From Prorocentrum cordatum (lineage: Eukaryota), in contig CAUYUJ010000085.1 in the NCBI GenBank assembly GCA_963575745.1, forward strand, positions 62,001 through 118,565: a stretch of DNA of 56,565 nucleotides, written 5' to 3'. Under the pieces are notes generated by a model, which saw only the letters and a program-made list of their open reading frames with translations, was not told where the DNA came from and made no database searches. This document shows positions 17,956 through 56,532 of the stretch, in pieces. The position numbers and the translations under genes are program-made. How positions within the stretch are numbered: position 1 is the first letter of the stretch; the number at the start of each line of letters is the position of its first letter.

Positions 17956-18887
17956 TCATGCATGAATGACACTCAGATCTGGGTTTGGATGAATCTGTCT
18001 CTCGCGCTGGTCTTGCTTATGCTTGTTATACAGCTGGAAGAACGCGTCGATGACATTGATGGCCAAGATCAACGCAAACACCAGAGCAAATGCCCCATCC
18101 GAAGGCCTTGCTGCTGCAATGACTACCATGATCGAAAGAACGAACATATACATCCATTTCAGATACTCGCGGAACTTCCACCAAGTGACCCACGGGTGCA
18201 GGGGGTAGACGTCGTCATCCTTCACGTCTCGAAACGACGCTTCCAGACGAGACGGAAGTCTGGGAGTATCTTTGTCCCGTCTTGTCCAGAGCCATGCGGA
18301 GCTCTCATTGTTGTACTCCAAGAGTTTAGCATGAGCCACCCCGATAGCAGGGAAGTTAGTCAATGCCAGTGCCAAGACCTTGCCTGTGGCTATTTGGACA
18401 TTCTCTGGATGCGCAGCTATCTGATTCCCTGGACTCCAAACGATACAACGCAATCTCTGCAAATACGCTGCACGACTAAGTCCATACGAGTGCACTCCAA
18501 ATGTCGCGGGTATAACTGATACGATCAATCCGATGCGCTGACAGGATGAACCCCACTCGCCTCCGAGACCAACACCATCCATATACCTCGCAACCTCGTC
18601 TATGCACTCACTAGCTCCCCTCAATTCGCTGATATCTTCTTCGATGGTTTCCGATATATCAGCCCTCATGCTCCTCCCGACCGGCTGAGGTACAAGAATC
18701 AATACACCCTGCAAAAATATCGGCAGTGTTCTGAGTACCATGTCATTCAGCTTTTGGACATACGTGGCCAACGAACGGTCTCTAACACCTTCCTTTGTCA
18801 ACCTGGACATCGATATAAACATTCCTAGGTCGTAGTGGACACCCGATACGATGAAAAAGAAAGCCGAACTCATTACATAAAATGCAT
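17956..18887 (-). CDS. C-terminal part of CUB-domain multipass membrane protein (separated from its N-terminal part by insertion)
   Basis: Non-repetitive ORF with hydrophobic helices, composition matching 36600-37700; joins in frame to ...RLMSY across AAT/ATAA junctions. Confidence 0.75.
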
Positions 18888-19113
18888 AATCCGCCGGCCC
18901 CATTGTGGGGCCATCAGGCTGCGAGGATTAGGCTGCAGCGCCCTGCGCCAATTTCAGTTGCCATTCTCCAATGGTACACTCCTGCTTCCTGTTTCCGACT
19001 GTAAGTTGTTCAAGTCCGCGTGAGGGGGGGGAGCCGAAAACCACCCCGTTGCCACCCCCAAATCGCGTTGCCTGAATTCCTGGGGGGCCGTGGGACACAT
19101 AAAAATACATGAG

Positions 19114-19644
19114 ATTCGCGCTCCCGAGGCAATAATCCCTGGTAGACTCTGACACCTCGCGGCCGGCCCCGTCCAGGTCCAGGGGAGGGGGTAGGGGGAG
19201 GGGTAAACCCCTTCCCGAAAGGGAAGAAGGGCGGTGGAAGAGGAAACGCTCTAGACTACCAACGCCCAGAGGGCTGGTGTGATTACGCTGTGCTCGCGCC
19301 CCCGAGGTCACGATCCTTTGCAAGTTACTCCACATTCTCTCCCCCGAAACCACGACCCCTTGCAACATACACCGTCTCCGCGTCCCCGAGGCCACGATCT
19401 CCCACAAATAACCCTACATTCGCGCCTCTGGGGGCCACGAGAATTACGCGACATTCGCTCTCCCGACGCCACGATCCTTCGTAAATTACTCCACGCTCGC
19501 GTCCCCGAGGCCACGATCCCTCGCAAATTGCGCTGCGTTCGCGTCCCCTTGTAAAACAAGCCATATTCGCACCCCCGAGGCCACGATCTTCCGCAATTTA
19601 CATAATTAACTGTCGCGCCTCTGGGGCCACGATCCATAGTAAAT
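19114..19644. repeat. ~42 bp degenerate tandem array, left part
   Basis: Units tcgcg(t/c)ccccgaggccacgatcc...aaatt; interrupted by a short reverse-orientation element end at ~19150-19281. Confidence 0.85.
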
Positions 19645-19814
19645 CCCACCAGCCCTCTGGGCGTTGGTGGTCTAGAGCGTTTCCTCTTCCACCTCCCTTC
19701 TTCCTTTTTTCGGGAAAGGGTTTAACACTGTTCCCTACTAATCAAAGTGAGGGGGCCGAACGGCCATTCACTGTCCTTGGGTGCGTGGCTGAAGTGGGTT
19801 TCCGCGGTGCGGAT

Positions 19815-19875
19815 TCTTGTTGTTGTTGGTTGTTGTTGTTGTTTGTTGTTGTTGTTGTTGTTGGTGGTGTTGTCG

Positions 19876-19912
<37 letters not shown>

Positions 19913-20760
19913 GGTTGTGGTTGTTGTTGTTGTCGTGTTCCTGTTGTTGTTGTTGTTGTTGTGTTGCCGTCGTCCCACCCGCAACCCGCCCTGCGACCCA
20001 CCCCGGGACCCACCCCGCGACCCACCCCGCGACCCATCCGCGACCCGCCCGCGACCCACCCCGCGACCCACCCCGCGACCCACCCCGCGACCCATCCCGC
20101 GACCCACCCGCGACCCACCCGCGACCCACCCGCGATCCACCCCGCGACCCACCCCGCGACCCACCCCGCGACCCACCCCCCGCGACCCACCCGCGACCCA
20201 CCCGCGACCCACCCCGCGACCCGCCCGCGGCCCACCCCGCGACCCACCCGCGACCCACCCGCGACCCACCCGCGACCCACCCGCAACCCACCCGCGACCC
20301 ACCCCGCGACCCACCCGCGACCCACCTTCGACCCAAACCACGTTCAAGGTACAAACCACCATTTTCGGCGCCTGCGGCGGGTTTTTTTCTTGCACTCCTT
20401 CCAGGTGGAGAGCCCGCGACCCACCCCACGACCAACCCGCGACCCAAACCACGTTCACGGTACAAAACACATTTTTCGGCGCCTGCGGTGGGCATCTTTT
20501 GCATTCGTTTAGGGTGGAGAGCCCGCGGCCCACCCGCGACCACGTTCAGGGCACAAACCAAATTATTCGGCGCATGCGGCGGGCATCTTTTGCATTCGTT
20601 CCCGGTGGAGAATCCGCGGCCCACCCGCGATCCAAACCGCGTTCAGTGTACAAACCCATTCTTTTGGCGCCTGCGGCGGGTTGCTTTTGCATTCTTCCAG
20701 GTGGAGGTGGAGAGCCCGCGACCCACCCGCGACCCAAACCACGTTCACTGAACAAACCAA
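19815..20760. repeat. (GTT)n, 11-12 bp CGCGACCCACCC minisatellite and ~100 bp x4 repeat
   Basis: Direct reading; aaaccacgttca...ttcggcgcctgcggcggg...ggtggagagcccgcg repeated four times. Confidence 0.9.
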
Positions 20761-21599
20761 TGCCGCACAAGCGCGGCGGCGGATTGTTGCATGCCGTCTG
20801 AGCCCGCTACGACCTCTTCAAGCCCCGCGCATCCTTACCAGCCCGTCCAGCAACTTTGCCCTGGCGAGTTGCCTTGATAAGAGAAGTCGGGGAGCACAAA
20901 GTGGACAAAAGGATTATGTTGCCGTTATATTGGGAAAGGAGGGGGCGGCAAGAGGAAAAAAACAGGGGACGAGGAGGACGCGGAAGAAGAGAGGATGCAA
21001 GGATAATGTGGAAAAATATGAGGAAAAGGAGCAGGAGGACGAGGAGGGGGAGGAAGGGGAGGAGGGGGAGGAGGAGGAGGACGAGGAGGGGGAGGAGGGG
21101 GAGGAGGGGGACGAGGATGATGATGGACGAGAATGGGAGGACGACGGTCGACGCCGATGAGGGGGAGGACGACCATGGGAGGACGATGATGGAAGGACGA
21201 GGGGGGGAGAGGGAGGACGAGGAAGAAAAGGAGGAGGACGACGAGGTCGAGGAGGAGGATGACGATGACGATGAGGACGAGGACGAGGACGAGGAGGAGG
21301 AGGAAAGCGCCATCGACAAGGAAGGTAATTAGGGGCCACGAGGTCCGCCGGCTCGACGACGCCCGCGTCGCCCGCGCCCGCCCCCTCACTCTTATCCGCA
21401 ATTGCGGGGTGCTACGTAAACACCCCCTCCCCCAAGCGACTGGTAGCCAACCAGGAACCATGAGGACACCCTCCCACCATCCCTCCAAACAAAAACCATA
21501 CAACACACACACACTCTGCCTCCAAATTCGGAGCATGGGCAGCCAACCCGAGGCGGCCTCCCCCCTCCATCCCTGACAACAACCTGTACAGATTACACT

Positions 21600-21901
21600 T
21601 GGCGGCGACGGCGGCTGCGGCGGTTGCGGCGGCGGCGGCGGCTGCGGCGGCTGCGGCGGCGGCGGCGGCGGCGGTGGCGACGCCGGCGGCGGGGGCGGCG
21701 GCGGCGGCGGCGGCGGCGGCGGCTGCGGCGGCGGCGCGGCGGCGGCGCGGCGGCGGTGGCGGCGGCGGCGGCGGTGGCGGTGGCGGCAGCGGCTGCGGCG
21801 GCAGCGGCTGTGGCTGCGGCGGCGGCGATTTGGCAGCGGGGGCGGCGGCAGCGGAGGCGGCGGCGGCGGCGGGCGGCGCGGCGGCGGCGGCGGCGGCGGC
21901 G

Positions 21902-21971
<70 letters not shown>

Positions 21972-21974
21972 GCA

Positions 21975-22008
<34 letters not shown>

Positions 22009-22010
22009 AT
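21600..22010. repeat. (GGC)n microsatellite
   Basis: Direct reading. Confidence 0.95.
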
Positions 22011-24212
22011 TGGCCCCCAGTAGCTGCCCATCCAAAGACGACTGCTGAATATGCTGAGGCTCGGGCTAGACTCGGGTGCTACGTATGTGTTGGGAGGGCG
22101 GGTGGGAGTGTGCGAGACGGCTTGCGGGCGGGGAGGGAGCCTTGACCCCTCCCCCACCCCCACCCCTGGACCTGGACGAGGCCGGTCGCGAGGTGTCCGA
22201 AGGTACTTGTTCGCCCAAAACGGCCCCAAGAGGGCCTCAGAGAGCCCACGATGGCGTCCAAGATCGCTCAAGATAGCGCGAGATGCCTCGAGATGGCCCC
22301 CAAGATGCTCCAAGACGCCCCAAGACTGCTCCAAGACGGCTCTAAGTTGCCAAAAGAGCTCCCCAATGATGCCCCCAAGATGCCAAAGCCTTCCAAATTG
22401 AGATAATCAGTGTGTTTGGGTTTCTCGCCTTTTCGCTTCCGATGGCCATTCGAAGCAGATAGCTCCAAGATGGCCCAAGAAAGCTCGAAGAGGGGCCCAA
22501 GGGAACCCAAGAGGGCTCCCGAGGGGAGAGGCTGATGAAGGGAGCCACATTATTTGAGCGTTGTCGCTTCCGATGGCCATCCGAGGCCTCAAGATGGTTC
22601 CCAGATGGCCCAAGAGGGCTCCAAGAGCGCTCCTAAGGCTCCCAAGAGCGCTTCATGAGGGCCCGAGGGGGCGCCCAGGAGCCCCAGGAGGCCCCAACAG
22701 GCGTCCAAGAGGCGTCCAAGAGGCTCCCAAGAGACCCCCAAGAAACCCCAAGAAACCCTGCGAGGCAACGGAAACGTTCCAAGAGGCGCCCGGGACCACC
22801 AAGAGGCCCCCAAGACGCTCCAGCAGGCCTCCACTGGGGGACCCTTCCTCTGTGTGCTGCCCACATCCCTGATCGAGGCAAATCCTCTGAGCATCGTTTC
22901 TGGATGGGCTGGTAGGGTTACTTTTGTGTTGCCAGCCGCAGGCGAGCGCGCCGACGGCGTGTCAAGGTCCGGGCGGGCCGCGCGAGGTCCTAAATTACCT
23001 AGCAGGAGCAGGCCTACCGCCGCAACTCAGGCCGAGACCAGGAAGGGGCCGAGGGGGTGGGGGGCAGTGGGCTGCAGGTTGCCACTGGCCTCAAACGTGC
23101 ACCGTGCTGGAAACGCGCTGCTGACTGCCAGGGGCTGCTGACTGCCAGGGGCTGCAGGCTGCCGTATGTGAGTTGAACTGCAAGGACTGGACAACCTCTG
23201 CAACTGAGAGGCTGCCAGGGTGGCCCGAACCGTAAGGCCTGACCCACCAAGTAAACGAACTGAGTGCGCGTGAATTGACCAACCGAAGTTGGAGCGCAGC
23301 CAAAATGGCGCGCAGTAGCACCAAGATGTGACCAGGGTGACGGCAGACAGGTGTACGGACTGCCCAAGATGCCCACAGTGGTCCAGCAGCAGGGCTGGTG
23401 GGGTTACTTTTTTTGATTAGCGGCCCGCAAGGAAAAGTCCACAGGGCGGGGTCACCGAGGCTGGGGCACAGCGCAAGATAATTAGCGCGAGAACGCGCGG
23501 ACCATGCAAAACCACTGGGCCGATGCCAGCGGGGGAGAAGCTGCCACAGGTGGACAACCGAAGATTATTTGCAAAATCACTGGGCAGATGCCAGCGGGGG
23601 AGAAGCTGCCACCGGTGGACAACAAAAGAACACAAGCCAGACCCGCAGGTGGGGAAACCTGGCCGGTGACCGGAAGAAAGAGCGCGAAACGGCAGGCGGC
23701 CACAAAGGGCGCGGCAGACAGGGGGGGGGGGAGGAAAGGAGAACAGGAGGCCTATAGCGCTGCGAACTCAATCACGTTGCACCCAGTGCGCAGACGCCAT
23801 CGAGCATGGCGATCACTCCCGACATCAACAATGGGGGGAAGCCACTTGGCACACAGCTAGACTTCCACTGGTGAAGCACGAGGAAGGGCCTTCCAATAGC
23901 CTCTGCACCACGGCCCGCACTCACACGGGCAGATGCCTGGGTGGGGTTATTTCAGCCGACCGCAGGCGCAGGAACCCACAAGGTGCCGCGGGAACCAATG
24001 CGCAGTGACGTGCCCCTCGAACCCAAGAGGTGGCACGAATCAGTGGCCAGAGCCATCCACTGCGTCAGGGACCGATGGGGCGATGCCTACGGCAAAACGG
24101 CCGGGTCCCCCGCGGGCCGGCAACGCGGCCAAGACCTTGGGGGGATAAACTCAGTCGACCACACGGGCTACAGCCCACGATGGCTGGTGGGGTTACGCGA
24201 AGCGTCTAGAAT

Positions 24213-24745
24213 TGAGCCACAGTTGCGCCCCCGAGGCAACGATCCTTCTTAAAATCATGCAGCAGTCGCGTCCCCGAGGCCAGCAACCCTCGCAAAGTAT
24301 GCGGCTCTTGCGCCGCCAGGGCAACAATTTCGCAAATTACTCGCTATTCGCGTCCCCGAGGCCTTTCACCCTTACAAATTGCGCAATTCTTGCGCCCCCG
24401 AGGCAAGACATCTTCTTCAATTACTCAAGTCGTGCGTCCCCGAGGGGACAAACCCTTGTAAATTATACCAGGTTCGCGTCCCCGAAGCCAGAATCCTGAG
24501 CAAATTCCCAACATTCGCGCCCACGAGGCCACAAACCCTCGCAAAGTGCTAGATAGTCGCGTCCCCGAAGCCAGAACCCCGTCGTATGTTACTCAATGTT
24601 CGCGCCCCCGAGGCCACAAACCCTAGCAAAGTGCTCAATGCTTGCGTCCCCGAGGCAACAAACTCTCACGAACTATGCAAGCAAGATGCGCGTCCACGTG
24701 GCCATAAACCTTCGCAAATTCGGAAATGTTCGCATTGCCGAGGCC
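24213..24745. repeat. ~42 bp degenerate tandem array, right part
   Basis: About 12 units of cgcgtccccgaggc...aaccct.gcaaa. Confidence 0.85.
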
Positions 24746-26369
24746 AAGAATGTTCCAAGGCGCCCGAAGATGATTCCAAGACAGCCCAAAAGGGCCCGAA
24801 GCGGCCCCAAGACCGCCACAAGAGGCCTCCTGGGAGAGCCCCAGGAGGCCAACATCGTCGATATTACATACTGTGTTTGAAGGAGTGTGGGGTTCTCGCA
24901 TGTTCGGCTTCCCGACGCTCGAAGATGGCTTAAGAAGCTTCCAAGACAGCCGAAGACGCTTCCAAGAGGGCCCCAAGACGGCCCAAGATGGCTCCAAGAT
25001 GGCCCAAGAAGCGTTCAGAGAAGCCCCGAGAAGCCCCCAGGAGGCCCCAAGAGGCCCCAAGAAGCGCCCAAGACGCGCCAAAGTGGCCTCAAGAGCTCCC
25101 TCTCAACCTCTTCCTCCGCCTCCTCCTGATCTTCCCCGCCATCCTCCCCCAAATGTTCCCTGAAGGGTTTCCACAACGGCTGGGGGAACACATGGTCCGA
25201 TAGCTTGGGCTCTTGCCACAATGCTCGGCCACATGGGCGATTCTAGAAGGCAAGGGGCGGCGGTGATTCGCAGTAGGCATCTTCGATCTGCCGCCCACTG
25301 TTGATTCATCACAGGGATGCCTGGCGTGCTGGATCCTTTCGGTTTTGGTTTTGGTACTATTTCCACAAGCACTCTCCCCTGGGGTTCCGGCCCAGCCCGC
25401 TGGCCACCCGGAAGGACCTAAAAGGGATCGCAAGACCGGGTTGCAAAGGGCTTTCTTCTCCATGCGGTTCCGAGATGGCCCACGATGGGCTCCAAGACGG
25501 CTACGATGGCCCTCGAGTTTGTCAAGATGGTCCAAGATGACCTCCAAGACGCCCCGACAAGGCTCACGTTGCCTCCAAGTCCGCCCAAGAAGCTTCGAAA
25601 ACGGTCCAAGCGGGCCCAAAGAGGCCCCCCAAGAGGCCCCCAAGACGGCCCAAGAGGCCTCCAAGAGGGCCTCCAGGAAGGCCCGAAGAGGCCAAGTTCA
25701 TTGATTGCCCTTAGGTCTCAGGTGCTTAAAGGATGTTGGCATTTGCTCTTGTTAGGCGTGCCGACGGCCCGAGACGGCCCAAGAGCTCCAAAAGATCGCC
25801 CCAAGATCGCCCAAGAGGCCTCCAAGACGGCCCCAGAACGGCCTCAGAGGCCCAAGACCGCCCCAGGAGGGCTCCAAGACGGACCGAGAGGCCTGGCCTC
25901 CAAGACGGCCCTGAAGCGCCCCAAGCGGGCCCCCAGTCTGCCCGGAGAGGCCCCCAAGTCCGACGGCGCCAGACGGGCCAGGAGCCAACCAGACCGGCCC
26001 AAGATGGCTCTAAGATGGCCCAAGACGGCCCAAGAGGTGCCCAAGAGGCCTCCAAGTCGGCACAAGAGGCCTCCGAGAGGTCCTCCAGGAGGCCCCGAAG
26101 AGGCCAACATCACTGATGCCCCCCAGGTTGTTGAAGGATTGTGGCAATTGCTCTCGCTATGCCTTCCGACGGCCCAAGAGGGCCCAAGAGGCCACCAACA
26201 TCGCCCCAGAGCGCCCAAGAGGCCCCCAAGATGGCCCCAGAACGGCCCATGTTGCCCCCAAGACGGCCCCAAGAGGGCCCAAAGACGGCCCAAGTGGCCT
26301 CCAACACGCCCAAGAAAGTCCCCAAGACGGCCCTGGAGCATTCCAAAAGGGCTCCTAGTCGACACAGAC

Positions 26370-26469
26370 TGCTATGGCCCCGCTAGACCCACTGCCCTGA
26401 GATCTGCTCTCCTCCCCTCTATATCTCTATTGTTCTCTCTCTCTCTCGTTCTCTCTTTCTTTTTTTCTT

Positions 26470-26505
<36 letters not shown>

Positions 26506-26960
26506 CTCTCTCGAAATGGCAACGCGTTGGTATCACTGATGCTGGTGGCAAGCGCGAGGGTGCTCGCGCGATTGTGATGAAAGGGAGCTGTTACGGTTGC
26601 GGGCCAGCTTGCAATCCTGCGCCTCGCAGGCGCACGCCAGGAGTCCAGCGACAGTGCGTCGCTGCAAAGGCTTGCGCCAAGTGCCAAGACGTGTTCGGTA
26701 GCAACGTCTTGGGAAAACTTGAAAATACATGATGAGACCCTGGGGCCTGAGGGCTCTACGAGGGCTCTTGGGGATACCACTCAGCATGGCTAGGCTGCAA
26801 ACGAAGTTTGGAACACGATGCCCCGTGAAACGCGGATATGTGTAAACGGGGGCGCCCAGTGAGCCCAGACATGCACGCAGGTGAAAGCTCACACTCGGCC
26901 TCCAGAGGCCATCTGCCGCAAGAAGGCTCTAGTCAGGCAGGCTCCGGGCTGCGAGTTACA
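26370..26960 (-). repeat. 3' LTR
   Basis: Colinear homology with 34914-35458 (ccactgccctgagat, gctgttacggttgcgggccagct, gtgaaacgcggatat, aggctctagtcaggcaggctc). Confidence 0.88.
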
Positions 26961-27995
26961 TGCCCAAACATAGGAATCGATGTTGCGACATCGAGGCGCG
27001 CCGCTGACCCCTGCATTCACTGAAAGCACAAAGCGGGGGCGCGGTCTTACCGAACCCCGCAAGGCCACGTGTCCGGCAGGGCACAACTGCTCGCAGGGAT
27101 TGTCGCGGGCGAAGTAGACGAAGACCTCCAGCATCGCATCTCCGTCATCATCGGACACGGGTTTGCCATGGTCGAGCTTGTCCATGCCTGCGGTCTGGCA
27201 TTTCCTGGCACTGCGTTGGAAAGGATCACCCACCAATCTCCAGCGCTGCCCTGCTCTGAAAAAACTTGGTCCAACCGTCGGCTAGCACAGCGTAGTTGCT
27301 GTGGACCCACCGCATATGGAGGGCCGTCAGCTCCAATTGCTGTCGGATGTCAAGACACTCGATCTTCGTTGTTTCATCGCGCAGCCCAAGGCCAGCCGAC
27401 TCACACTTCTCGATCGCGCAATAGCCCGATGTCCCGCTTCAGGCTGAGATGGCATCGTTTTCGCGCTGCTCGGAAGTCCACTGGGCCGCACACTAGCTTG
27501 CGTATGCAAAACCGCGGGTTGCTGATCTCGTCCAAAGTCCCAGTCATCATCTGGACCTCCGAAATCGCACTGCTTCTGGCCACGCGAAGCAACTTGCAGG
27601 ATCTGTATGAAATAGGCGCCGCAGTCTCCGCCGAACCGCTGAGTAAGGACAACGGGGCCAGAACGGTTGTCCGCCTTGGGACTCGCCGGTCGCTCTCACA
27701 GCCCAGGCCGCGTCACCCCAGCCAACCGCGGCGATCTGGTCGACGGCCGGAATGAGCGCGACCACGTCGGCAGTGTTGCGCATGGTGCAGATCAGCGCGT
27801 TAATCGTCTGGATGGTTGAGACCGCGGCCGTCGGAGTCCTGGCATGGAGCAAAGATACTTATGCACTGAACCACGGGGCCGACTGCTGCGCGCGCCATCC
27901 GAGTGCACCAAGTCGGCCTCGCAGGCCCGATCGCTCCTTACCCGAACCCCCCCCCGTAGGTCTTCGGCCACGTCGTACCTTGTTGGGTTCCACGT

Positions 27996-28640
27996 TCAGG
28001 CTGTAGTTGTCCTGAGCGGGGCTGCAACTGAAATCGTCAGACTGTCGGATACTGATGCCGCGCTGGACGAAGGCGCGGCTCTCCCAGGGCGTCCACTCTT
28101 CTGGATATCCTTACGCTTCTCGAGGGAGGCCAGGCTCGTCTGGTCAGCAGCGATCATCATATCATCGACGCGTAGGATTACCATGCCAACCAGCTTGTCA
28201 ACGTCGCAGAAAACCCAGAAGCAGGGCTCGCACTGAGCAGCCTCCAGCTCGAGCTTCTTGAGCGCGTCTTGGAAGTGGAGCCACCACTTGCGAAGAGCGT
28301 GTAAGAATCCGCACACTGGCTTGAACAACTGCAAGGCCCGGTAGTCGTCCACGCCGAATGCCTGGCGGACATATCCCGGAGGGGCCGCGTAGAGATTACT
28401 CTTCTCCTTGTCGGCCTCCCCCTGGAGGAAGGCCGTCACTGCGTCTGCTTTCTCCAGCTTCCACTTGCGTCAGGCTGCCATGGCCAATAGAAAATGACGC
28501 GCCCGTCGCGAAGCGACGGGGGGCTCCGTCTGGAGGCGGAGCAAGCCGGGGTCGATGAAGCCGAGCATGACCAGTCTAGCCGCGCCTCGGAGAACGCCGC
28601 CTTGCCCCAAGCCGAGCCTCGTTCCAAGTCGAGCCTTGGC
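27996..28640 (-). pseudogene. Copia reverse transcriptase fragments
   Basis: ARLVMLGFIDP, TAFLQG, L.KPVCG, EPCFW, ILRVDDMM. Confidence 0.88.
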
Positions 28641-29859
28641 CCAGCAAGCCGGGGTCGACGAAGTCGAGCCGTGTTCCAGGTCGGCACGAAGCGGCAGCGA
28701 AGGAGGAGCGCTCCTGCTGAGCCTCGAGTAGCAGCTTCTTCTCCTCTGCGGTCGCCTTCTGGATGGAGACCCCCACTCGGCCCTCGCGGGCCTCAGATGC
28801 CACGAAGTTGCTGGGGTCGCACATGTACGCCATGAGCGCGTGCTCGCATTTGAAGGGGATGTCCAGAACGATGAGCTCATTATCCTCCTTGGCCTCATCG
28901 CACTACTGGGCGCTGTAAGCGCGCGCGTAGTCCCCGTAGAAATCTCCCTCCTGCAAGAAGTACAAGAAAGCCACCAGGGTGGTAGCGTCGACCAGTTGCG
29001 TCCTGACAGGTGGCCCTGGCGACCCCGGGGCTTGCCGATGACGCTTGTTGTTGGCATCAGGCGCCGTCGCCTCTTTCAGGTCCTCCTCGTCCGTGTCCAC
29101 GGTAATACGGCGCCGGGAAGCGTGACCCCCCTGGTCGTCTATTGGAGGGGCCTCCACGATGATCTCTTCTTCAGGCACTCCAGCTTTTTCGCCGGGCTGA
29201 CGAAGGCCCGGTGGAACCTCTGGCGTTGCTGGATGGATAACAAGGTCTGGATCCGCGCTCGCGGCGAGCCAAGGGCTTCCCTTACGTCGCACCCTCCTAG
29301 GCAGTTTCGGCCCGAATATAAGAAGTCCTTCGAGTCCAGTAGTGGCCGAAGGCAAGCTGCCACCTCCGCCACCTCCTGGCCCAAGGCGCTGAGGTTCTCC
29401 CGGGGGGGGGGCCGTAGATCGTTGTCCTCGTCGATTGCCCAAGGCCCGCTCGGATTGCCCGCGAGGGCGCGGGCGCTGACCGACTCGCCGTCGCCCGTTG
29501 CAAGGTCCTCGCCTGTCGGCGGGGGCCCGTTGGACAGGTCAATCATCTCGTTGGCGTCGAGATGCTTCTGGACCTCTCCAAAGGCCCATGTCCCAGGATG
29601 CTCGCGGCGCGAGCGCAGGGGATCCATCGCCTCCTCCGACGGGGTGGCCGGTCGAAGCTGCTCTGGAGCCACCAGGTAGGAGGCGACCAGCCAACGCGAT
29701 GTTGACCAAGGCCCCTGGCAGGCCAGGTCGATATCCAGAGCTCGCAGGCTCGCGACTCAGAACTGGCCCAGGGCCGCACCAGTGACATCGCCCCAATATG
29801 GAGCGAGACTGCCCTTTCTTCCGCCGGGCTCCTGGTGGGAGCCGCCTGCGCACGAAGAC

Positions 29860-30740
29860 CAGGTCACCAGTCTCGTACTTTCTGAAGGACCTGGACCTGG
29901 GCGCCTCGGCTCGCTCGTCGCGGTCCGAAAAATTCCGCCTGGATGTGTGCCAGTCTCGACAGTCGTCGTACTTGAGCGTCTCTGCTGAAGGTGCCGTCCA
30001 ACAGTTCGGTGCTGACGAGAGGCAGGTTGCGCGGCTCGTCGGACAAGTTGACGGCGGTGCCCGTCGGCGTCCGACCCGCGCACCGTTGAAGCGGGCTGAA
30101 ACCGTCGATCCGGATCAGGTCGTTCCTCGCCGCGATCTCGCCAGTCGGCACCTTGGCAGAGACCGTCTCAGCCAAGGCGTCGAGTGCCTCCTTGAAAGCC
30201 TCGGTCGCGCGCTCGATCTTGCCGATCCGCCAGCGGGCGTCGGCGGCTAAGGAGAGGCAGTAGTTGCCCAGACCCTCGGCCCACTCCCGGGTCGCGGCGC
30301 ATGGCCTTTGGGCGCCCCATCCAGGGGAAGCCACTTTTTAGCGAAGATATGTCGGGGGTCTCCTGCGCGCACTTGTCGAGTCTGTCCTGGAGCCCCCCTC
30401 TCGTCGATCAGCCTCGCGTAGAGGATGCCGGAGCCAGCGCCAAGGACCGACAGCGCCATCGCGCTCGCGTTCGTACCGCGTCGGGTCCACGAGATGGCCT
30501 CGACGAGCACTTCGTGACCGTTCTGGGGCTGCTCGACCGATGACGCAGGGGGCCGCGTCGTTGGTCGGTGAGCATCGTAGATGCCGCACTTAAAGTTCAG
30601 GGCCAACAGCAGCACCTTTGGTCTAGCGCCTCGATCTCGACGGTATCGAAGTAGGTGAGCCCGAGGTAGGTGTCCATGGTTGGCATGGATCAACCTGACG
30701 TCGCTCCCGAGCTTATGGATCGTCTCGTTGGCGAGGTCGT
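29860..30740 (-). pseudogene. Integrase fragments (HHCC zinc-binding region and core)
   Basis: VRLIHANHGH...LLRY..DRGA..V...A.NFKC; WRIGKIER. Confidence 0.75.
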
Positions 30741-30840
30741 GGATGCCTCTGCCGTCCTTCCGTCGTCGATCGGCAGGCGGCTGCCGCGTGGCAGCCAGGC
30801 AGTGGCAGCGCACAACCTCATCCTCGAAGTAGTTGGGGTT

Positions 30841-31420
30841 CTAGCTCTTCGTCAGAGCTCTGAGGGTCTTGCAGCGCAGCGTCTTAGGGTAGTTTCCCGG
30901 CGCATCCTTGCGCGGGCTGCTCTCGATCTCCTTGTGATAATGGTCTCCGCGGCACTGCGCGGGCTGGAGAGTAATCCAGATCCCCTTGTCCTTCGTCTGG
31001 AACTTCCAGCGCTTCCTCATGAGCCCCCCAGCATTTGGAGCTCCGAGTCCACGCGAGAAGCCGTCAACAATGACCTTGGATGGGAGTGCGCTGTGAAGAC
31101 CCTTCCAGCAGGTCCTCTGCCGCGAACGGTCGTCGTGGGAGTGCTCTGCGAGGGCCAAGCCGCGCGCGTTTAGAGCCCGATGTTCGCGTGCCATTACTTA
31201 AGATCACGTGGCGCTTAGCCCTCTTCTTGCGAAGGTAGCTATCCTGCTGCTCGTTGCGCTGGTTGACGTGCTGCGTAATCGACCAAGGCCCGTCCGCAGG
31301 GTGGAGCGCTGACGCAGATCTCTGGGCGCTTCTCGCCAAGTAGGAACTTCGCCTTGCGATCGCTCGCAACGGTAGCCTTTCTTGTTGCACACCTGGCCAA
31401 GGTTCGAGCCCAGGTGGGCG
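30841..31420 (-). pseudogene. Degenerate C5-MTase-like domain inside Copia pol
   Basis: VDG..RGL.AP..GGLMRKRWKFQT, CRGDHYHKEIE, GNYPKTL resemble the C-terminal half of the MTase-like domain at 6590-7021; catalytic motifs eroded. Confidence 0.55.
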
Positions 31421-33289
31421 CGGGCCTCCACCGCCGCCAAGCGGCCGGAAGACGCGAGGGAGCACATGGCCCCGAACAGAGCCGATCTTGTCGAGCGGGC
31501 AGCTGCCCAGATAGCCCGACGCCGATGACCCGTCAAAGGGCGGCTGCCGTCGCCGAGCCAGCGCGTCCCCCTGCACCGCGCGTCGCCCAGGCCTCCTGAG
31601 TCGCGCGCGCTCGGCGGCGCCACCCGCGGGGCCTCACCTTCGCGATTGGCTCGCGCATTGCGACGCCCCCTCTGCAAGCAACGAGGACGCTGGCACTCCT
31701 GAGCGCAATGGGCCGCGATGGCCGGCTCCGCGACTGCGGAAGCCGCCTCCATCTCTTTGATCTCCACCCCCTTCTTGATCTTGATCGCCGGGGCCGCCGC
31801 CCCGCGCTGCTCGATTACGGGCGCGATGATGCGGTCGATCACCTCCTCCTTGTTCCCTGCATGGACCAGCCCCCAGCTCCTGCGCAGGGGCCTGAGGTGG
31901 TTGGGCATCGTGACGATGCTGCGCTGCTCGCGAATCTGCTCCGAGCTGAGCGCCGCCGACGCAGTCAGCTCCGCAACTTGGTCAAGAAATCTGACTTTGC
32001 GCTCTCGATGGCGTCGCGCAACTTCCTGTTCTGCTGGATCGGCGCGGCCGAGGCGGCCGACTCCTTTGCCTCCCGGCGCGACGGACTGCGAGTCTCGAGC
32101 TTCGCCTGATGTCCAAGCTCCGCCGGTCAGGTCGGGCACCGAGTGGGCAGCAGCTGCACCAGCAGGTCGACGCTGCCCAGCTTCCACTTCTCGAGATACA
32201 CTGTCTTCAAGAAGGTCTCTAGCATGAGTCGCGCCGGCGGCGCGTCGCCCTCGATAGCAGCTTCTCGCAGACCCACATCTCCCAGAAAGGTAGGTGCTCC
32301 AGTAAGAACATCTCCGACAGCCGCGTCATGTCCCTGCCCTGCTCTGGGCCCGCAGGTGGCAGCCCCCCCCGCGCCCGCGGCTCCATCTCCTCGTTGTCTC
32401 TCCACTTGCTGGCCCTCTGCTTTGAAGCATATCGTCTCGCGGTTGAGGCTCGCGCAGATATGGGAGATATGAAGACTGCTGAGAACTGAGCTCCTCGCTC
32501 GACTCGTTTGCGCCGAAACTGGCGATGGAACATGATGGCGCCGCGGCCCGGTGCTTGATCAGCGCGGGGACCTCGGGAACGACCTCAGGAGGTTGACCAG
32601 GCCATGGCCTTTAGCGGGCCGGAGTTGGTGACAATGATGCCTGGGGAGCAGGTGAAAATCATGTCGCCGCAGGCGCGGGTAATGATGACATGCCCGCGGG
32701 CGCGGGCAACGACGATGTCCCCGCAGCTGTAGGCGCTGACGATGCCCCTGTGGCTGCGGGCAACGATGTCCGGGGGCCTGGCGGGGCCCCAATTGCGGGG
32801 GTCTCATCTGGGAGCTCTTGGGGGGCATCGGCAGGAGCACCTGGGCGTTCGCTGTCAATCGGCTGCTTGTTCTCGCATTTTCCCTCCTGCACCGGAGCAG
32901 TCTCGGGCGTCGGGGGCGCGCGCCCCCAGCTGAGGATGGCCACGAAGCGGCAAGTCGGCATGCGATGCAAGTGGCTGCGCAGGGTGGCCGCTCGGAAGGG
33001 CGAGCAGCCGCGCTCGGCGCCCGAGCTTCTCGAAGTAAGCAGCGCGCGCCGTGCAGTCGATCGCGGCTCCCGGGCGGCTCGAGACACCACCCCAACTCAG
33101 CAGCGGAGCGTCGGCGCCCAGGATGTCGGTCTCGAGCTCGCCCTCCGCGCCGGCTATCTCCAGCGGAAAGGTGGCCTTGCCGTTGCAGGTCTCGGAGTTG
33201 ACGTCGCCGAAGATTTAAGGTTGACTTCTGGCCGACGATAATATTGACGTTCCTGCCTGTCTGCTCATAGACGGTGCCTGGCAGCTTCT

Positions 33290-33350
33290 CGGCGGCCTAT
33301 ATGCCCGCGATGCTGGAGGCAGCGCCGATGTCCAGAATGCCGGAGCCCTC
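33290..33350 (-). pseudogene. Aspartic protease active-site remnant
   Basis: Manual translation GSGILDIGAASSIAG (LD(T/S)GA-like). Confidence 0.65.
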
Positions 33351-34099
33351 GGAGCCAGACTGCTTCACGCCCGTGCGCATCCACTCTTCGCCCTGCTCCA
33401 AGGTCGCCCAGACGGGCGAGGTCACCAGACGATCAGAACGCGGATCCCGGTCGAGGTATCGTAGATCGCCTCGTCGCGCCCGGTCAGATGGGCCCCCATC
33501 TCCGCGCCTCGCTGAGCGCTGAAGAAGTCGAAGCTCGAGAAAGCCTTCTTCGGTCGATCTCGACCCCCTCGGCTGCCGGCGGATGAAACTCGGTCTCGGT
33601 GGTCTTTCGTATTACCTCCACATTTCAAGCGCAGGCCCTTCTATGCGGGACGCGAGCGGTCACTACTCTTGGAACTCGGTCGATCACGTCGCTGTCCGTC
33701 GACGCGCCCTCGCCCCGTGGAAAACCAAGAGCCTCGGGATGCCATTCGAGGTCCATGGGGCTTCTCGTCGCGCGGGCTGCGCATCCACTGGGAAGGAATT
33801 CCTCGCCGTCTTCACTCGACGAAGCAGGTCCCGAGCCTGCTCGAAGCTGCGCTGCTGAGCTGCGAAGGCGGTCTCGGCCTCCTCTATCGCTGGAGCAACG
33901 TAGAGGGGCTCCTCGGGATCTTTGGATCTTCCTCCGGCTGGGTATCGTAGGACGCGTTCGAATCGTCGTAGTAGCCATAGCCATGCTGAACTTCATCTTC
34001 GTCATCTTCCTGATCCCCGCCGGCCCGGACCCTGCCACGATCCGGGCGGCAGTGATCTTTGCCCTGGTTATTGTCGCGATTCGTCGAGTCGCCATCTGG

Positions 34100-34850
34100 C
34101 CAGGATACTCGAAACTGCTCCGATGCTCTCGCAGTCGAGGTTACCCTCCACAACACTGATCACTGCTGCACGCTCGGTCGGGGACAGTCTGGATCTTTGC
34201 AGCAGTAACCACCCACGGAGCTGGTCGATGGGGAACCGCCCGGTTAAAATCGGTTCCGAAATCGGCATGCTCCAGAATTTCCTGGAGCCCCGTCCTGATG
34301 AAGCTCCAGAGCTTGAGGTTCAGCTCTCTCGCTTTGTCGGCAGGAGTCCTCGGGGCCCTCGAGCAAGATCTCATGGAGGAATCAATGCATCTCTGTGTAG
34401 ACGTCGTTCCAATCCGTCGCCCGTTTGGCGAGACGCTGATGTCTCTGCTTCTCGAAATATTCGGTGGCAAATCCGTTGACCAAGTCGTGATAGGTTTCGT
34501 AATCGCGGCGGACAAAGGACGGCATAACAAGAGTCGCGTCGTAGATCGAATACCAATCTGGCCAAATACTTCCCAGCGTCCTGGATGGGCTGCGCTCCGA
34601 GCATTGCGCGGACGTGTCTGGGCAACTCAATGGCGCCATCGTCCTTCTAGATGCGGTCCCAATCAACGTGCATGGCGGCCTGTCTAGCTCGTCGCCCGAG
34701 TCGTCTCCAGAGTCTGTGGCCGAACACATTTCGTTTGTCACGCCTGGTCCCGCGGATAGAGGCCTTGGCGTCTCGCTCGTAATCGTTCACCTTGGTGAAG
34801 TCTCCGTTCCACTCCAATACAATGTCATCTCCAATGCTGCGTTTCGCCAT
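34100..34850 (-). pseudogene. gag remnant
   Basis: MAKRSIGDDIVLEWNGDF...; DQLRGWLLLQRSRLSPTERAAV; directly downstream of the PBS. Confidence 0.7.
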
Positions 34851-34901
34851 TGTGTCGTAGCACGCTGTGCTCCGTGAATATGTTGCCCATGGAGCTTCAC
34901 A

Positions 34902-34913
34902 GCTCCGCAACCA
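34902..34913 (-). promoter_or_regulatory. Primer-binding-site-like sequence TGGTTGCGGAGC
   Basis: Starts with TGG immediately inside the 5' LTR; resembles initiator-Met-type PBS. Confidence 0.6.
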
Positions 34914-35458
34914 TGCAATGGCGCTGCTAGAACCACTGCCCTGAGATGAATCCCTGGATATTGGTCTCTCTCTTCTCTCTCTCTCTCTCGCCTCTCGAGG
35001 TTTCGATAACACTGATGTTGGTGTCGGGGATGTACGGGCAATGGGAAGCACGAGGCTGCTCGCGCGATGGTGATGAAAAGGGGCTGTTACGGTTGCGGGC
35101 CAGCTCGCAATCCTGCGCGTCACAGGCGCGCACCATGAATCCAGCGACACTCTGTCGCTGCAAAGGCTTGAACCAAGGCGGTTTCAAAAGAAACGTCCTG
35201 GGGACACTTGAAACATTTATAGAATGAGCCATCTGGGGCCCGAGGGCTCTACGAGGGTTCTCGGGGAGACCATCAAGCATGCCTAAACTACACACGGAAT
35301 TCGAAACACGATGCGCCGTGAAACGCGGATATATGTAAACCGGGGTCCCTTGTGAGCGCAGACATGTATGCAGGTGTAAGCTCACACTCGGCATCTAGAG
35401 GCCATCTGTTGTGTAGTAAGGAGGCTCTAGTCAGGCAGGCTCTGGGCTGTACGTTGCA
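34914..35458 (-). repeat. 5' LTR
   Basis: Homologous to 26370-26960; TG..CA ends. Confidence 0.88.
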
Positions 35459-36595
35459 CAGCGAGGCCCCCGAAACAATTCCCGACGGAACCAGACGGGC
35501 CAGGAGCCCACCAAGACGGCCCCAAATGGCTCTAAGATGGCCCAAGACGGCTCCCAAGAGGCCTCCAAAACGGCCCACGAGGCTCTCCAGGAAGGCCCGA
35601 AGATGCCAAATGCATCGATTTCCCTCCGGTTTTCGGGAGATATGTTTGCTTCGGTCGGCCTTCCGACGGCCCGAGACGGCCCAAGAGCCCCGAAAGATCG
35701 CCCAAGAGGCCTCCAGGACGGCCCCAGAACAGCCCAAGAAGCCTCCAAGACGGCCCCAAGAGGGCCGCAGAAGGCCCAAAAGGCCTCCAAGACGCCCAAG
35801 ATGGCCTCAAAGACGTCCCTCGAGTCAAGTCGGCCCAGAAAAGCCCCAAAGACGGCTTCCGACGGCGTCGGACGTGCCAGGAATGCCCTGAGACCCCGAG
35901 AAGCCCCCAAAGGCCCTCAAAATGCACAACGAGGCCCCCCAAGATGCCTCCAAGAGGCTCTCAGGAAACTCCCAGGAGGAGGCGCCAAGAGTGCCCCCAG
36001 AGGCTCCCAAGATGCTTCCTCCTCCTCCTCCTGCTCCTCCTCCTCCTCCTCCTCCTCCTCCTCCTCCTCCTCCTTCTATTCTTCCTCCTCCTCCTCCTCC
36101 TCCTCCTCCTCCTTCTATCCTCCTCCTTCTGCTCCTCCTCCTCCTCCTTCTCCTCCTCCTCCTGATCTTCCCCGCCGTCCTCCCCGACGTGTTCCCCGAA
36201 GGGTTCCCACAACTGTTGGGGGAACAAATGGCCTGGTGTGTTGGCAGAGCACTGGCCACAACGCTCAGACGCATGGGCGATTCCAAGCCGCTTGCTCCCC
36301 CAAGCGTTCCCCGAAGGCTTTCCCTACCGACTCGGGGAACAATTGGCCCGATAGCTTGGCCAAGCTCTAGCCCAGCTGTCGGCCACATCAGCGCTTCCAC
36401 AAGGGCAGGGCGCGGCGGCGATTCGCCGTGCGCGTCGTCGATAACGCCAACGTCTCAATACGCGCTGATGGTTCCAATCCGCCCCCGCATGATGTTCGCA
36501 GATGCGCCGAGACAGCGCCGAGACGCACCGACGCGACCCTGATCTACCCCATTAGGATAGAGAGGGGGCCGGCGGCAGGGGGCGAAGCCCTTACG

Positions 36596-37983
36596 AATAA
36601 GACATGAGCCGTGCAATCAGCCATGAGGCTGCATATCCAAGCTCAATTCCGTGGGGGTGGACCACTTCGACCTCGCAATATTTAGAATCGTGTGACATCA
36701 TGCCGGGGAATCCAGAGACTATGCCCTGCCCAACAAGTTGCAGAGTGTAGAAGTTCAACTTGAGGATGATCAATACAACCAGGGCGTAAAACTTCTGCTT
36801 CAGAAAACCCATATTGCCAGCAGTCTCATCTGCTGGCGCCTCTTCCAACCGCTTCTGCCGATCGTACAAAGGAGATGCAACGTCGGTCGTGCACCATACG
36901 AACTGGACATATGTTGCAGAAAGGCAAACGACAGAATAGGCAGACCACGCGGCAGGATTGCATGCCACGGGCCAATCCAAGCATGCACGAACCCACTTAA
37001 GAATCGGACGGAACAGCTCGAACGCTGGGGATACGATGCTCATGACCGCGAAATCGCCCTTCATGCCCTGCATGACCGCATACACTGGCGGAGAATCACT
37101 TGAGTCGCGCTGGGAGGGAAGCAGATCAAATCCACTCTCGATCAGCATTGCGTCCACCAAGAACTGGACGTAGACTCCAACACTTATCACGGTGGCAATT
37201 ACAAGAAGAGCCACTGTCCGATAAGTCCACTTGACGAATGGGTGCCTCAAGAACTGCCACAGCTTCCCCTCGTACTTCACGGCAGGAACTTGACCTCCTG
37301 AGACTCTTGTTTCATTCGTAGCTCGCTCTGCGACGGACTCCATCAGTGTGAGGAGCATGAAGAATAGCGACATCATCAACAAACCGAACAGATAAGTGAT
37401 TAGGAAGGTGACCGCCGCAAACAAGATAATAATGAAAGTCAGCATTGTGAATGATACAATTCCCCACCACAAGATGCAATATCCAACGATGTTGAATGGA
37501 TGTTCACTGTCTCCCGCGGCCTTGCCACCGTGCAACAACATATACGGGAAATGTGCGATGCGAACTGCGAGGCTGCTCAACATCTCGGTTTTACATACTT
37601 TGTGGGCCAAAATGCATAGTACCGTAGATACCAGAGGGGCCACAGCAAGGAATGGGACAAGCCACACAACCATCACCGTCATGAAGGCGTAAATGAACAT
37701 CTCGAATCCTCGGGCTTCGATGGGCGGCTCAGCGGCCCGCACGGCATCGGCCTCCGACGTGCGGCAAATCTTCCACCCTGTAGATTCGACGCCGTCGTCA
37801 GAGCTCCACAGGATCGCCCCGGTTGCCACGACGTCCTGCGGGCCCCGCGAGAAGTGGCCCGAATAGCGCTTCCCGTTCACGGTGAGGACGTCGTAGTTCC
37901 TCTCGCTGCGGAAGCGGATGGCGCTGACGCTCTCCTGCGCCCACGGGTTCACGGAGATCTCGCAGCTCTGCTGGCCACCGTAC
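36596..37983 (-). CDS. CUB-domain multipass membrane protein, exon 2 (cut by insertion)
   Basis: YGGQQSCEI..F.SERNYDVLTVNG.RYSG..WSSD..GWKIC followed by many hydrophobic helices. Confidence 0.85.
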
Positions 37984-38354
37984 CTCGGCTACACGCAGGA
38001 GAGCGACCCTGGGCAAGAGTGACCTGTGGTGCGCGGCCCAGTGTGGGGGGCCCTTCGGGGACACCGCCGGGCGCGCAGGCCGCTGCTGTCGCATCGTGCT
38101 TGGCGATCGGGGTGCCCCACTGGGCCCGCACCAGAGGTCACTCCAGCGAAGGGTCACTCTGACACGTCGTTCATTTCTCATCGTGCTCGTTTCTGCTTGT
38201 GCTCGTGTCTCTGCTTGTTCCTGGCCCCCTGGTGGCCAGGAAGAGGCCCAGGACAGAGGCATCAGACATGAGAGGATCCTGGCCTCCTAAGATACCCCCG
38301 AGAGGCCTCCCGAAGAAGCAGACGTGAGCAACGTGTGCGCGTGCAGCCGCGCAC
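37984..38354 (-). other. Spliceosomal intron (GT...AG|G), 371 bp
   Basis: Splicing CG|GTGCGC...CCGAG|GTAC gives continuous CUB motif CVQSPNYPGRYGGQQSC in frame. Confidence 0.85.
38000..38160. mobile_element. MITE family A copy 2 (intronic)
   Basis: agagcgaccct..gagtgacctgtggtgcg / cgcaccagaggtcactc..agggtcactct. Confidence 0.75.
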
Positions 38355-42376: not shown

Positions 42377-42407
42377 ACGAGCCACGCGCCGCAGGGCGCG
42401 CACCAGC

Positions 42408-56501: not shown

Positions 56502-56532
<31 letters not shown>

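Follow-up and report, generated by a model that had tools for sequence, protein, structure and literature searches.

Nested transposable elements with Helitron2-like ends in Prorocentrum cordatum, one of which is absent from the mRNA of its host gene

An interrupted gene and the ends of the outer element

We have analyzed a stretch of 56,565 nucleotides from the dinoflagellate Prorocentrum cordatum (contig CAUYUJ010000085.1, positions 62,001 to 118,565 of the forward strand), hereafter called the window and numbered from its first letter. The G+C content in the window ranges from 50 to 74%, that of the P. cordatum genome is 59.7% (Dougan et al. 2023, PMC10666404), and the window is rich in triplet and minisatellite repeats. 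A 17,708-bp element, here called the outer element, lies antisense within a coding exon of an expressed membrane-protein gene, and a 4,568-bp inner element is nested in it. Both are probably non-autonomous members of a very abundant dinoflagellate family of the Helitron2/HLE2 type. A preliminary description, made from the letters of the window alone, had proposed the paired ends of these elements; it had overlooked both the position of the outer element in a coding exon and its absence from the messenger RNA (mRNA). The outer element and the two parts of the gene are as follows (ORF, open reading frame; L040, a metagenome copy treated below; a slash within a sequence marks a junction or cut).

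18888..18890, + strand: target AAT; a single copy is kept in the uninterrupted mRNA form, and only AT is general for the family
18891..36598, + strand: outer element, 17,708 bp when the 3′ AAT is counted as its own end; exact ends, from the mRNA joint and the relative L040
18891..18901, + strand: outer 5′ asymmetric terminal inverted repeat, CCGCCGGCCCC, preceded by AAT
18896..18912, + strand: outer 5′ hairpin GGCCCCA-TTG-TGGGGCC, overlapping the 5′ repeat; folding z = -2.47
18892..19134, + strand: outer 5′ body, 76% identical over 246 nt to L040
36565..36575, + strand: outer 3′ subterminal repeat, GGGGCCGGCGG, the complement of CCGCCGGCCCC, followed by the spacer cagg
36580..36590, + strand: outer 3′ mini-hairpin, GGGCGAAGCCC (GGGC-GAA-GCCC), which includes GCGAAGC
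36591..36598, + strand: outer 3′ tail, TTACGAAT (ttacg plus the AAT at 36596-36598)
36599..37952, - strand: upstream part of the interrupted membrane-protein gene (ORF P0001, 36591-37952)
17956..18890, - strand: downstream part of the interrupted membrane-protein gene (ORF P0002, 17956-18903; from residue 6)

The 11-bp repeat pair of the outer element is placed asymmetrically: the left repeat begins at the 5′ terminus itself (0 bp), the right one stops 20-23 bp short of the 3′ terminus, and the mini-hairpin starts 4 nt past the 3′ repeat. The exact 11-mer is found at just two sites in the window, which are the left and the right ends of the outer element. Mini-hairpin DNA of the type GCGNAGC is reported to be extraordinarily stable (PMC13037366), in agreement with what the preliminary description had said of GCGAAGC, and such stability fits a single-stranded DNA intermediate. 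The tail of two metagenome copies of the same subfamily, L022 and L040, reads TTACGGAT.

The outer element is absent from the mRNA of the gene

P0001 and P0002 fall into protein clusters whose named members are P. cordatum proteins, at least 99% identical to the gene, and MMETSP transcripts. When compared with the transcript-derived protein P0159 (830 amino acids), P0001 is identical at 451 of 452 residues (P0159 residues 69-520) and P0002 at all 310 (residues 521-830), and P0159 reads ...LMSY/YAFYV across the site. P0001 and P0002 are thus the two halves of one membrane-protein ORF.

Contigs from four sequencing runs (X1, X2, X10 and X16) were compared with positions 17950-37949 of the window. 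The joint from 18887 to 36596, which skips 17,708 bases, is found in one contig each of X10 and X16 (polyA metatranscriptome). The joint contigs show 0 differences over 938+1354 nt (2,292 nt), and three letters at the joint fit either side. The contigs of X1 and X2 cover all 30 bins of the region, so these runs were taken as DNA. The left junction of flank and element is crossed by contigs of both X1 and X2 and the right junction by an X2 contig, and no empty joint was seen in either run, whose contigs show presence and not absence. The RNA runs lack coverage of the element interior, which was weighed only alongside the joining contigs. All six genome-derived protein models that reach the site read ...LMSYS, into the tail of the element, and both transcript-derived proteins (P0159 and P0161) read across it. 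The genomic copies of the gene differ from each other by 0.2-1.2% in protein, and the RNA contigs are identical to the copy in the window. These results suggest that the outer element is rather likely to be removed from the transcript as a non-canonical intron.

The three ambiguous letters at the joint allow four boundary pairs on the gene strand, CG..TT, TC..AT, TT..GA and AT..GG. A canonical or U12 intron is ruled out from these boundary letters. On the minus strand at 36591-36600, the reverse complement of the outer tail, ATTC/GTAAGG, resembles a splice donor, and the protein models P0153 and P0156 seem to splice there (YS-I...); use of this GTAAGG as donor is excluded by the actual mRNA sequence.

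Residues 1-125 of P0001 (37578-37952, - strand) contain an N-terminal domain of ~65 amino acids with 387 relatives at E <= 1e-3 among 1.84 billion representatives searched. The domain often occurs as several repeats per protein, in proteins of up to 5801 amino acids, and has no Pfam match. Among the 150 listed of these 387 matches, the best-matching stretch is confined to the N-terminal ~65-125 residues and none spans the insertion site.

The inner element and the nested structure

The inner element and the other sequences nested between the ends of the outer element are the following (LTR, long terminal repeat).

19645..24212, + strand: inner element, 4,568 bp including the terminal AAT, inside a 42-bp satellite
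19645..19654, + strand: inner 5′ repeat, CCCACCAGCC, with AAT before it (19642-19644)
19646-19670, + strand: inner 5′ hairpin; folding z = -3.06
24182..24212, + strand: inner 3′ end, made of the repeat GGCTGGTGGG (24182-24191), gtt, the mini-hairpin ACGCGAAGCGT and the tail CTAGAAT (AAT at 24210-24212)
19148..19284, - strand: reversed fragment of the inner family; 5′ end AAT/CACACCAGCC at 19284
19285..19644, + strand: 42-bp satellite, left part, internal to the outer element; the same satellite is present within L040
24213..24746, + strand: 42-bp satellite, right part
24747..25290, + strand: 10-11 bp CCAAGAGGCC satellite, then a 3′ region ending ...GGGGCGGCGG...TTCGAT
25291..36442, + strand: candidate third element, with the 5′ end CTGCCGCCC...GGCGTGCT, the CCAAGAGGCC satellite and the 3′ region ...GGGCGCGGCGG...GTCGAT; boundaries tentative
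26380..35455, - strand: LTR retrotransposon candidate, with ~570-bp direct repeats (26380-26960 and 34924-35455, 81% identical) around single-copy DNA

The inner repeats are 10 bp long, at distances of 0 bp (5′) and 18-21 bp (3′) from the ends of the element, and the mini-hairpin ACGC-GAA-GCGT starts 3 nt past the 3′ repeat. The exact letters of both the outer and the inner paired ends were confirmed as first described. We then asked how often such an arrangement is found by chance. GCGAAGC alone is not enriched in the window (14 matches vs 15.2 expected), and a loose form of the design, with 26 matches vs a mean of 10.1 in 100 shuffles, proved too permissive and was replaced by a strict scan. 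The strict design requires AT followed by a 10-mer, the reverse complement of that 10-mer, 2-6 nt, a 4-bp stem with a GAA loop, and a tail ending in AT. It has two matches in the window, both on the + strand, vs a mean of 0.01 in 500 dinucleotide shuffles; at least one match was found in 5 of the 500 shuffles and two matches in none of them. The strict design was set post hoc, after inspection of the data, and its real test is the copies outside the window.

Simple repeats make up about half of the inner element (19817-22008), namely (TTG)50, a 12-mer repeated 30 times, (AGG)n and (GGC)135, and the summed word depth over them reaches ~100,000 in X1. The satellite unit that spans the inner-element junction has the modal length of 42 nt only when one AAT is counted. 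In the reversed fragment, 19204-19284 is 91.6% identical to 19724-19642 (inverted) and 19148-19207 is 90% identical to 22200-22142. At 23393-23407, 15 nt of the inner 3′ repeat and its spacer (GGCTGGTGGGGTTAC) recur and are followed by a T run in place of the hairpin; this may be a broken or bypassed 3′ end. Outside the outer element, the minus strand at 16722-16692 reads GGGTTGGGTAACGCGAAGGGTATGCAT. This degenerate reverse end does resemble the inner 3′ end, as had been pointed out, and no 5′ end that could be its partner was found.

A third pair of ends had also been suggested. Its two sequences, GAT/CTGCCGCCC at 25288 and GCGGCGG...GAT at 36442, are present as described, and their pairing is imperfect. 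Positions 25095-25287 and 36131-36442 are direct homologous copies of each other (76-79% identity), and position 25290 is therefore itself a 3′ end adjoining a 5′ end. The 5′ end of the candidate third element resembles a type that we found behind 3′ tails in metagenome loci, for example GAT/CTGCCGCCCC... in L027. We considered whether the third pair consists of two right ends only, and dropped this idea since CTGCCGCC...GGCGTGCT is a genuine 5′-end type in the metagenome loci. Judging from the similarities described here, the segment 24747..25290 is probably a 5′-truncated copy of a third family, and it is plausible that 25291 pairs with 36442 as a third nested relative behind this tandem copy, its repeats being imperfect.

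The interior of the LTR candidate contains a weak copia-type reverse transcriptase remnant at 27996-28439 (RVT_2, E = 6e-6, under the Pfam cut-off), and its word depth in X1 (12-18) equals that of the flanks; the candidate probably represents an old LTR retrotransposon. The copia-like region also includes, at 28494-28530, a long perfect hairpin, cccgtcGCGAAGCgacggg, without a repeat or tail of the family type.

The metagenome copy L040 is a relative of the outer element of only ~0.76 kb, with the same 5′ body (76% over 246 nt), the 42-bp satellite and the 3′ end. Since L040 also carries the 42-bp satellite, the satellite is an internal part of the element. The size of 17.7 kb is made up by nested insertions (the inner element, the third relative and the probable LTR retrotransposon) in a satellite-bearing element of ~0.8 kb, and not, as previously proposed, by an ability to carry large cargo. 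The outer element would thus be a Helitron2-like non-autonomous element enlarged by nested insertions.

Family copies in marine metagenomes

Metagenome contigs were searched for the 26 nt of the outer 3′ motif, with a tolerance of one G gained or lost. The scan yielded 97 further loci, every one from marine assemblies. The bodies upstream of the motif represent many unrelated subfamilies. The 3′ tails are short, generally 5-9 nt (TTAGGAT, TTAAAT, TTCAGAT and others), and end in AT in all 96 copies with enough sequence (88 distinct contexts), vs 38% of random positions. The flanks past the tail vary; they are often (TA)n, and often lead straight into the 5′ end of another element.

The search for paired ends proposed earlier was thus run on marine metagenomes, and it returned complete copies for part of the loci: in 22 of the 97, CCGCCGGCCCC with at most one mismatch lies 435-1553 bp upstream of the 3′ motif. 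AT stands directly before the 5′ repeat in 21 of the 22 complete copies. A conserved CAGGCTG box and a hairpin follow the 5′ repeat, and the 5′ end of the outer element in the window aligns with those of the metagenome copies. Across the 23 aligned 5′ ends, the outer 5′ repeat is unchanged except for two first-base changes, and each end has a perfect 5′ stem of 5-8 bp that starts inside the repeat and whose distal pairs vary compensatorily. The pair of 11-nt repeats is exact in 20 cases, including the outer pair in the window. In L020, in addition, another two complementary repeats, CCGCCGCGGCT/AGCCGCGGCGG, accompany the same mini-hairpin in the same arrangement. Covariation of the left and right repeats, noticed from the window alone, is thus borne out by three different complementary pairs: CCGCCGGCCCC/GGGGCCGGCGG, CCCACCAGCC/GGCTGGTGGG and CCGCCGCGGCT/AGCCGCGGCGG. 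The stem of the mini-hairpin is likewise altered on both sides between families, GGGC/GCCC vs ACGC/GCGT.

Word depth summed over the 3′ motif amounts to ~31,000-39,000 in the two DNA-like runs, vs ~15-30 on the flanks; this figure is not a copy number and is taken as a sign of very many copies. With 97 metagenome copies, 22 of them complete, the earlier suggestion of a non-autonomous, mobile, rolling-circle-like family appears well founded at the level of sequence.

We further noticed a second 5′-end type, (T/C)CGCCGC.CCCC-TTCA-GGGG-AGCAGGGCGTGCT, behind many 3′ tails (L013, L019, L023, L027, L034, L035, L047, L050, L057 and others, at distances of -118 to -142). About 75-100 nt inward, it contains a ~20-nt reverse complement of the 3′ motif (..CGCCCCCTG/CCGCCGGCCCC; L057:455-585). 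Owing to this internal complement, the element-element junction is flanked by a long inverted repeat.

Insertion site and target

The rule for the junction is AT across the family (96 of 96 tails and 21 of 22 5′ flanks) and not (A/G)AT, as it had been given from the window. The sites are AAT/A, AAT/T and TAT/N, with T before the cut and the following base free. The empty form, as seen in the mRNA, retains one AAT. In none of 21 copies is the base before AT the same in the 5′ flank and in the tail; the seven copies whose tail is followed by G or C leave no ambiguity here, and a 3-bp duplication is ruled out family-wide. The tail is constant within a subfamily before differing flanks (e.g., TTAGGAT), so that the AT acts as part of the element. 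A TA duplication would predict a skip of 17,711 bases vs the 17,708 seen, and was rejected. We read this most simply as an element that has AT for its last letters and is put directly 3′ of an AT in the target, with no 3-bp duplication.

Other features of the window

The remaining parts of the window contain two further retrotransposon-like features (LINE, long interspersed nuclear element).

41022-46974, + strand: apparently intact non-LTR retrotransposon (LINE), with a 1590-aa ORF carrying Exo_endo_phos (endonuclease) and RVT_1, then an RNase H ORF
1090-2187, - strand: RVT_1 reverse-transcriptase remnant, score under the Pfam cut-off

Among the window ORFs of at least 100 amino acids, 148 of 218 were scanned, and the only recognizable coding capacity is retrotransposon-like. 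No Rep, helicase (Helitron_like_N, PIF1) or other transposase domain was found in them, in line with the earlier remark that no transposase is visible here. No tRNA or Rfam match was found in the window. A (TA)n microsatellite at 56445-56530 is empty; many metagenome copies of the family sit in such sites.

Relation to known transposons

In the published description of Helitron2, the asymmetric repeats are 8-15 bp, the 5′ repeat lies 0-2 bp from the end and overlies a 5′ hairpin, the 3′ repeat is found ~20-30 bp inside the opposite end with a hairpin right after it, related families show compensatory changes, and there is usually no target duplication (Bao and Jurka 2013, PMC3627910). The window elements share the structural ones among these features. 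The repeat lengths and distances of both the outer and the inner pair fall into the same asymmetric scheme, the 5′ repeat is part of a hairpin (stems in 23 of 23 ends; z = -2.5 and -3.1 in the window), and a 3′ hairpin lies just behind the 3′ repeat in the outer element, the inner element and L020. Compensatory changes are seen in the three complementary pairs and in the stems altered on both sides. Abundant non-autonomous copies are a further likeness to Helitron2/HLE2 (PMC3627910; HELIANO, PMC11417382). An autonomous member of this group would encode a Rep protein (HUH, two tyrosines) and a Pif1-like helicase. Judged by these ends, the window elements are built to the published Helitron2/HLE2 design (PMC3627910, PMC11417382) and do not represent an undescribed class, as had been proposed; the preliminary description had correctly noted the likeness to Helitron2 without recognizing it as an identity of design. 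They differ from Helitron2/HLE2 in that the ends are very GC-rich, the host is a dinoflagellate and one copy behaves as an intron without splice consensus.

Similarly, HINE/DINE-1 elements have subterminal inverted repeats, a 3′ stem-loop, internal tandem repeats and a very high copy number, with central microsatellites or tandem repeats taking up to about half of the element (Thomas et al. 2014, PMC4067079). However, in HINEs the 5′ repeat is set back 2-4 nt and the 3′ repeat 38-60 nt from the respective end, and HINEs have ends with T runs, a TT target and autonomous partners with an AP endonuclease (PMC4067079). FoHeli1 and FoHeli2 of Fusarium oxysporum share asymmetric repeats, hairpins with GAA loops and self-insertions with the elements described here; their target is TNAT, and the outer site in the window is TAAT/A (Chellapan et al. 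2016, PMC5148889). They give joined-end (circular) products, and differ in that the 3′ repeat lies 38-51 bp from the end and that they are autonomous, 5-6 kb long and encode a Rep/helicase (RepHel) protein (PMC5148889).

Other classes do not fit. A canonical Helitron (Helitron1) has a 5′-TC, a 3′-CTRR, a single 3′ hairpin and an insertion between A and T, and was rejected because the ends here are CC... and ...(G/A)AT, hairpins are present at both ends and insertion is after AT. A DNA transposon with terminal inverted repeats, or a miniature inverted-repeat transposable element (MITE) derived from one, does not agree with a 3′ repeat that is internal to a conserved hairpin and tail (97 copies) and with an unduplicated third base. 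The HUH single-strand transposons IS200/IS605 and IS91 have subterminal hairpins, insert 3′ of a short specific sequence without duplication and give one-ended or tandem products; they are prokaryotic and use a Y1 or Y2 transposase without a helicase fusion. They are alike in their workings, share no sequence relation with the elements described here, and membership is not proposed.

A literature search, limited in its coverage, found no description of this element family in Prorocentrum. A Helitron2-like element with RepHel has been published for the dinoflagellate Symbiodinium. What appears to be new here is the occurrence in this host group, insertion at AT, the size of the family and the probable non-canonical removal from mRNA.

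Introner elements offer another comparison. The introns of P. cordatum are reported to be enriched in elements whose inverted repeats measure 8-20 nt and whose direct repeats measure 3-5 nt (Dougan et al. 2023, PMC10666404), and Amoebophrya has non-canonical introns with terminal inverted and direct repeats whose splice dinucleotides are unconserved (Farhat et al. 2021, PMC7789003). Like the outer copy, for which filled DNA in the same strain would be presumed, these elements are absent from mRNA; like the family described here, they are repeated in the genome, contain no transposase and, in Amoebophrya, show unconserved splice dinucleotides (PMC7789003, PMC10666404). Both kinds of repeat, of the lengths just given, lie within 30 bases of the intron ends (PMC7789003, PMC10666404); the outer element has 11-nt repeats 0 and 20 nt from its ends and AAT on both sides, of which AT alone holds family-wide. 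In contrast, the published elements are short (40-1000 bp analyzed), have near-terminal repeats on both sides and are read as MITE-like (PMC7789003, PMC10666404), whereas here the repeat is asymmetric, with the hairpin and tail outside it, and only AT is common to the family. In the sections of PMC7789003, PMC10666404 and 10.1101/2020.10.14.339549 available to us, no link between introner introns and Helitron-type ends was found. The introner-like elements of Polarella and Symbiodinium are also transposons that make introns in either orientation with the frame restored, but their GH..AG sites come from the duplication or from the element and their duplications are 3-8 bp (10.1101/2020.10.14.339549); none of the four boundary pairs here is GH..AG.

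Discussion

These results could be explained if the window elements are nested non-autonomous members of a Helitron2/HLE2-type family, and we regard this as the probable explanation. Several points weigh against it. The target is AT plus any base and not TTTT/T or the T-T reported for most HLE2 elements (PMC11417382). No Rep/helicase was found in the scanned ORFs of the window or the metagenome loci, so that an HUH mechanism and the membership in the family would be read from the ends; in the loci, 49 of the 55 ORFs of at least 150 amino acids (from 14 loci of at least 2 kb) contained no transposase, only unrelated and retrotransposon domains. A 2-bp AT duplication is indistinguishable from no duplication. 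The same missing HUH gene could also point to cut-and-paste MITEs of an unknown DDE transposon with a 2-3 bp (AT/AAT) duplication, which is how dinoflagellate introner elements are usually read. AAT does stand on each side of both window copies, the 17,708 skipped bases are accounted for by the element together with one AAT, and P. cordatum introns are reported to be enriched in elements with 8-20 nt inverted and 3-5 nt direct repeats (PMC10666404). A DDE enzyme acting on symmetric ends, however, leaves the asymmetry unexplained: one of the two repeats stands at the very end of every copy, and its partner lies ~20 nt inside the opposite end and has a conserved hairpin and tail beyond it (96 of 96 tails). 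Moreover, the base before AT is duplicated in 0 of 21 copies, the tail is fixed per subfamily (TTAGGAT) so that AT behaves as part of the element, and head-to-tail junctions are frequent. We therefore consider the MITE explanation improbable. We give a similarly small chance to a new class of single-strand transposons (HUH or other) that has converged on the Helitron2 design with an enzyme unrelated to RepHel. It would account for the failure to find RepHel in the scanned ORFs of the window and the 97 loci, for the AT target instead of T-T, and for a dinoflagellate host, a group with one published RepHel (Symbiodinium) in the literature searched; the second 5′-end type, with its internal 20-nt complement of the 3′ motif, is likewise not part of the Helitron2 description in the sections available of PMC3627910. 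Yet all the structural features listed for Helitron2 there are present (PMC3627910), related fungal elements share the GAA-loop hairpins and a target in ..AT (PMC5148889), and non-autonomous copies usually far outnumber autonomous ones, which makes a RepHel missing from 56 kb plus ~150 kb of short contigs weak evidence.

The absence of the outer element from the mRNA has to be weighed separately. It is conceivable, though on balance unlikely, that the transcripts without the element originate from an allele, paralogue or strain in which the site is empty, in which case the insertion would be an ordinary polymorphism and the gene would be broken wherever the site is filled. No known splice consensus is present at the boundaries, the organism labels differ between the RNA and the DNA runs, and a recent insertion would leave just such a precise empty site. 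The following observations likewise count against removal from the transcript: none of the four boundary pairs fits a dinoflagellate spliceosomal intron (GT/GC/GA..AG), removal from RNA is seen at one locus only, with DNA and RNA possibly from different strains, and the gene is multi-copy, so that there may be an undetected empty paralogue. On the other hand, the insertion is present in all six genome-derived models, which differ by 0.2-1.2%, and is thus older than the gene copies. The RNA contigs match the flanks of the window copy with 0 differences in 2,292 nt, both ORF halves are intact, and neither of the two DNA runs shows an empty joint. By word depth, a rough measure, the flanks in X1 (14-17) are not above the unique interior (12-18). 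The non-canonical introns of Amoebophrya, with their terminal inverted and direct repeats, provide a precedent (PMC7789003).

If the elements are of the Helitron2/HLE2 type, they may work as follows. Each element carries a GC-rich 5′ repeat of 10-11 nt that doubles as a hairpin, its complement ~20 nt before the 3′ end, a mini-hairpin of the GCGAAGC type directly behind the complement and a tail of 5-9 nt with a terminal AT. A RepHel-like HUH transposase encoded elsewhere would nick single-stranded DNA after AT at the 5′ junction, at the 3′ end and at the target. The + strand would then travel via a rolling-circle or circular-intermediate route and be integrated on the 3′ side of an AT in the target, with no true duplication. 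Resident copies would offer their own 3′ ends as targets, which would give rise to head-to-tail arrays. From the mRNA, which lacks the outer copy and keeps one AAT, the element would most likely have been removed as a non-canonical intron. Pairing of the two repeats in the antisense transcript would leave 20 unpaired nt at the 5′ boundary and 0 at the 3′ boundary.

More tentatively, we raise the possibility that dinoflagellate introner elements and non-canonical introns, at least those of this family, are Helitron2-type single-strand transposons, whose "direct repeat" would be the AT cleavage motif and no duplication, and which would be excised exactly from pre-mRNA, in either orientation and without GY..AG. 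This excision would be guided by pairing of the asymmetric repeats, which would bring the exon ends together in the antisense transcript.

The elements described here assign part of the unclassified repeats in the 4-5 Gb genome of a bloom-forming dinoflagellate to a defined family with a probable mechanism, and their end motifs retrieve family copies from ocean metagenomes. A 17.7-kb transposon in a coding exon that is absent from the mRNA without splice consensus is also a directly testable case. If only insertion polymorphism is involved, this would be an ordinary new Helitron2-like family. If removal takes place at the RNA level, it would join the Helitron2 and the dinoflagellate introner literatures and bear on intron gain. 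And if excision is guided by pairing, insertion into a coding exon would be harmless, and introns could be gained in a way that bypasses the recruitment of splice sites.

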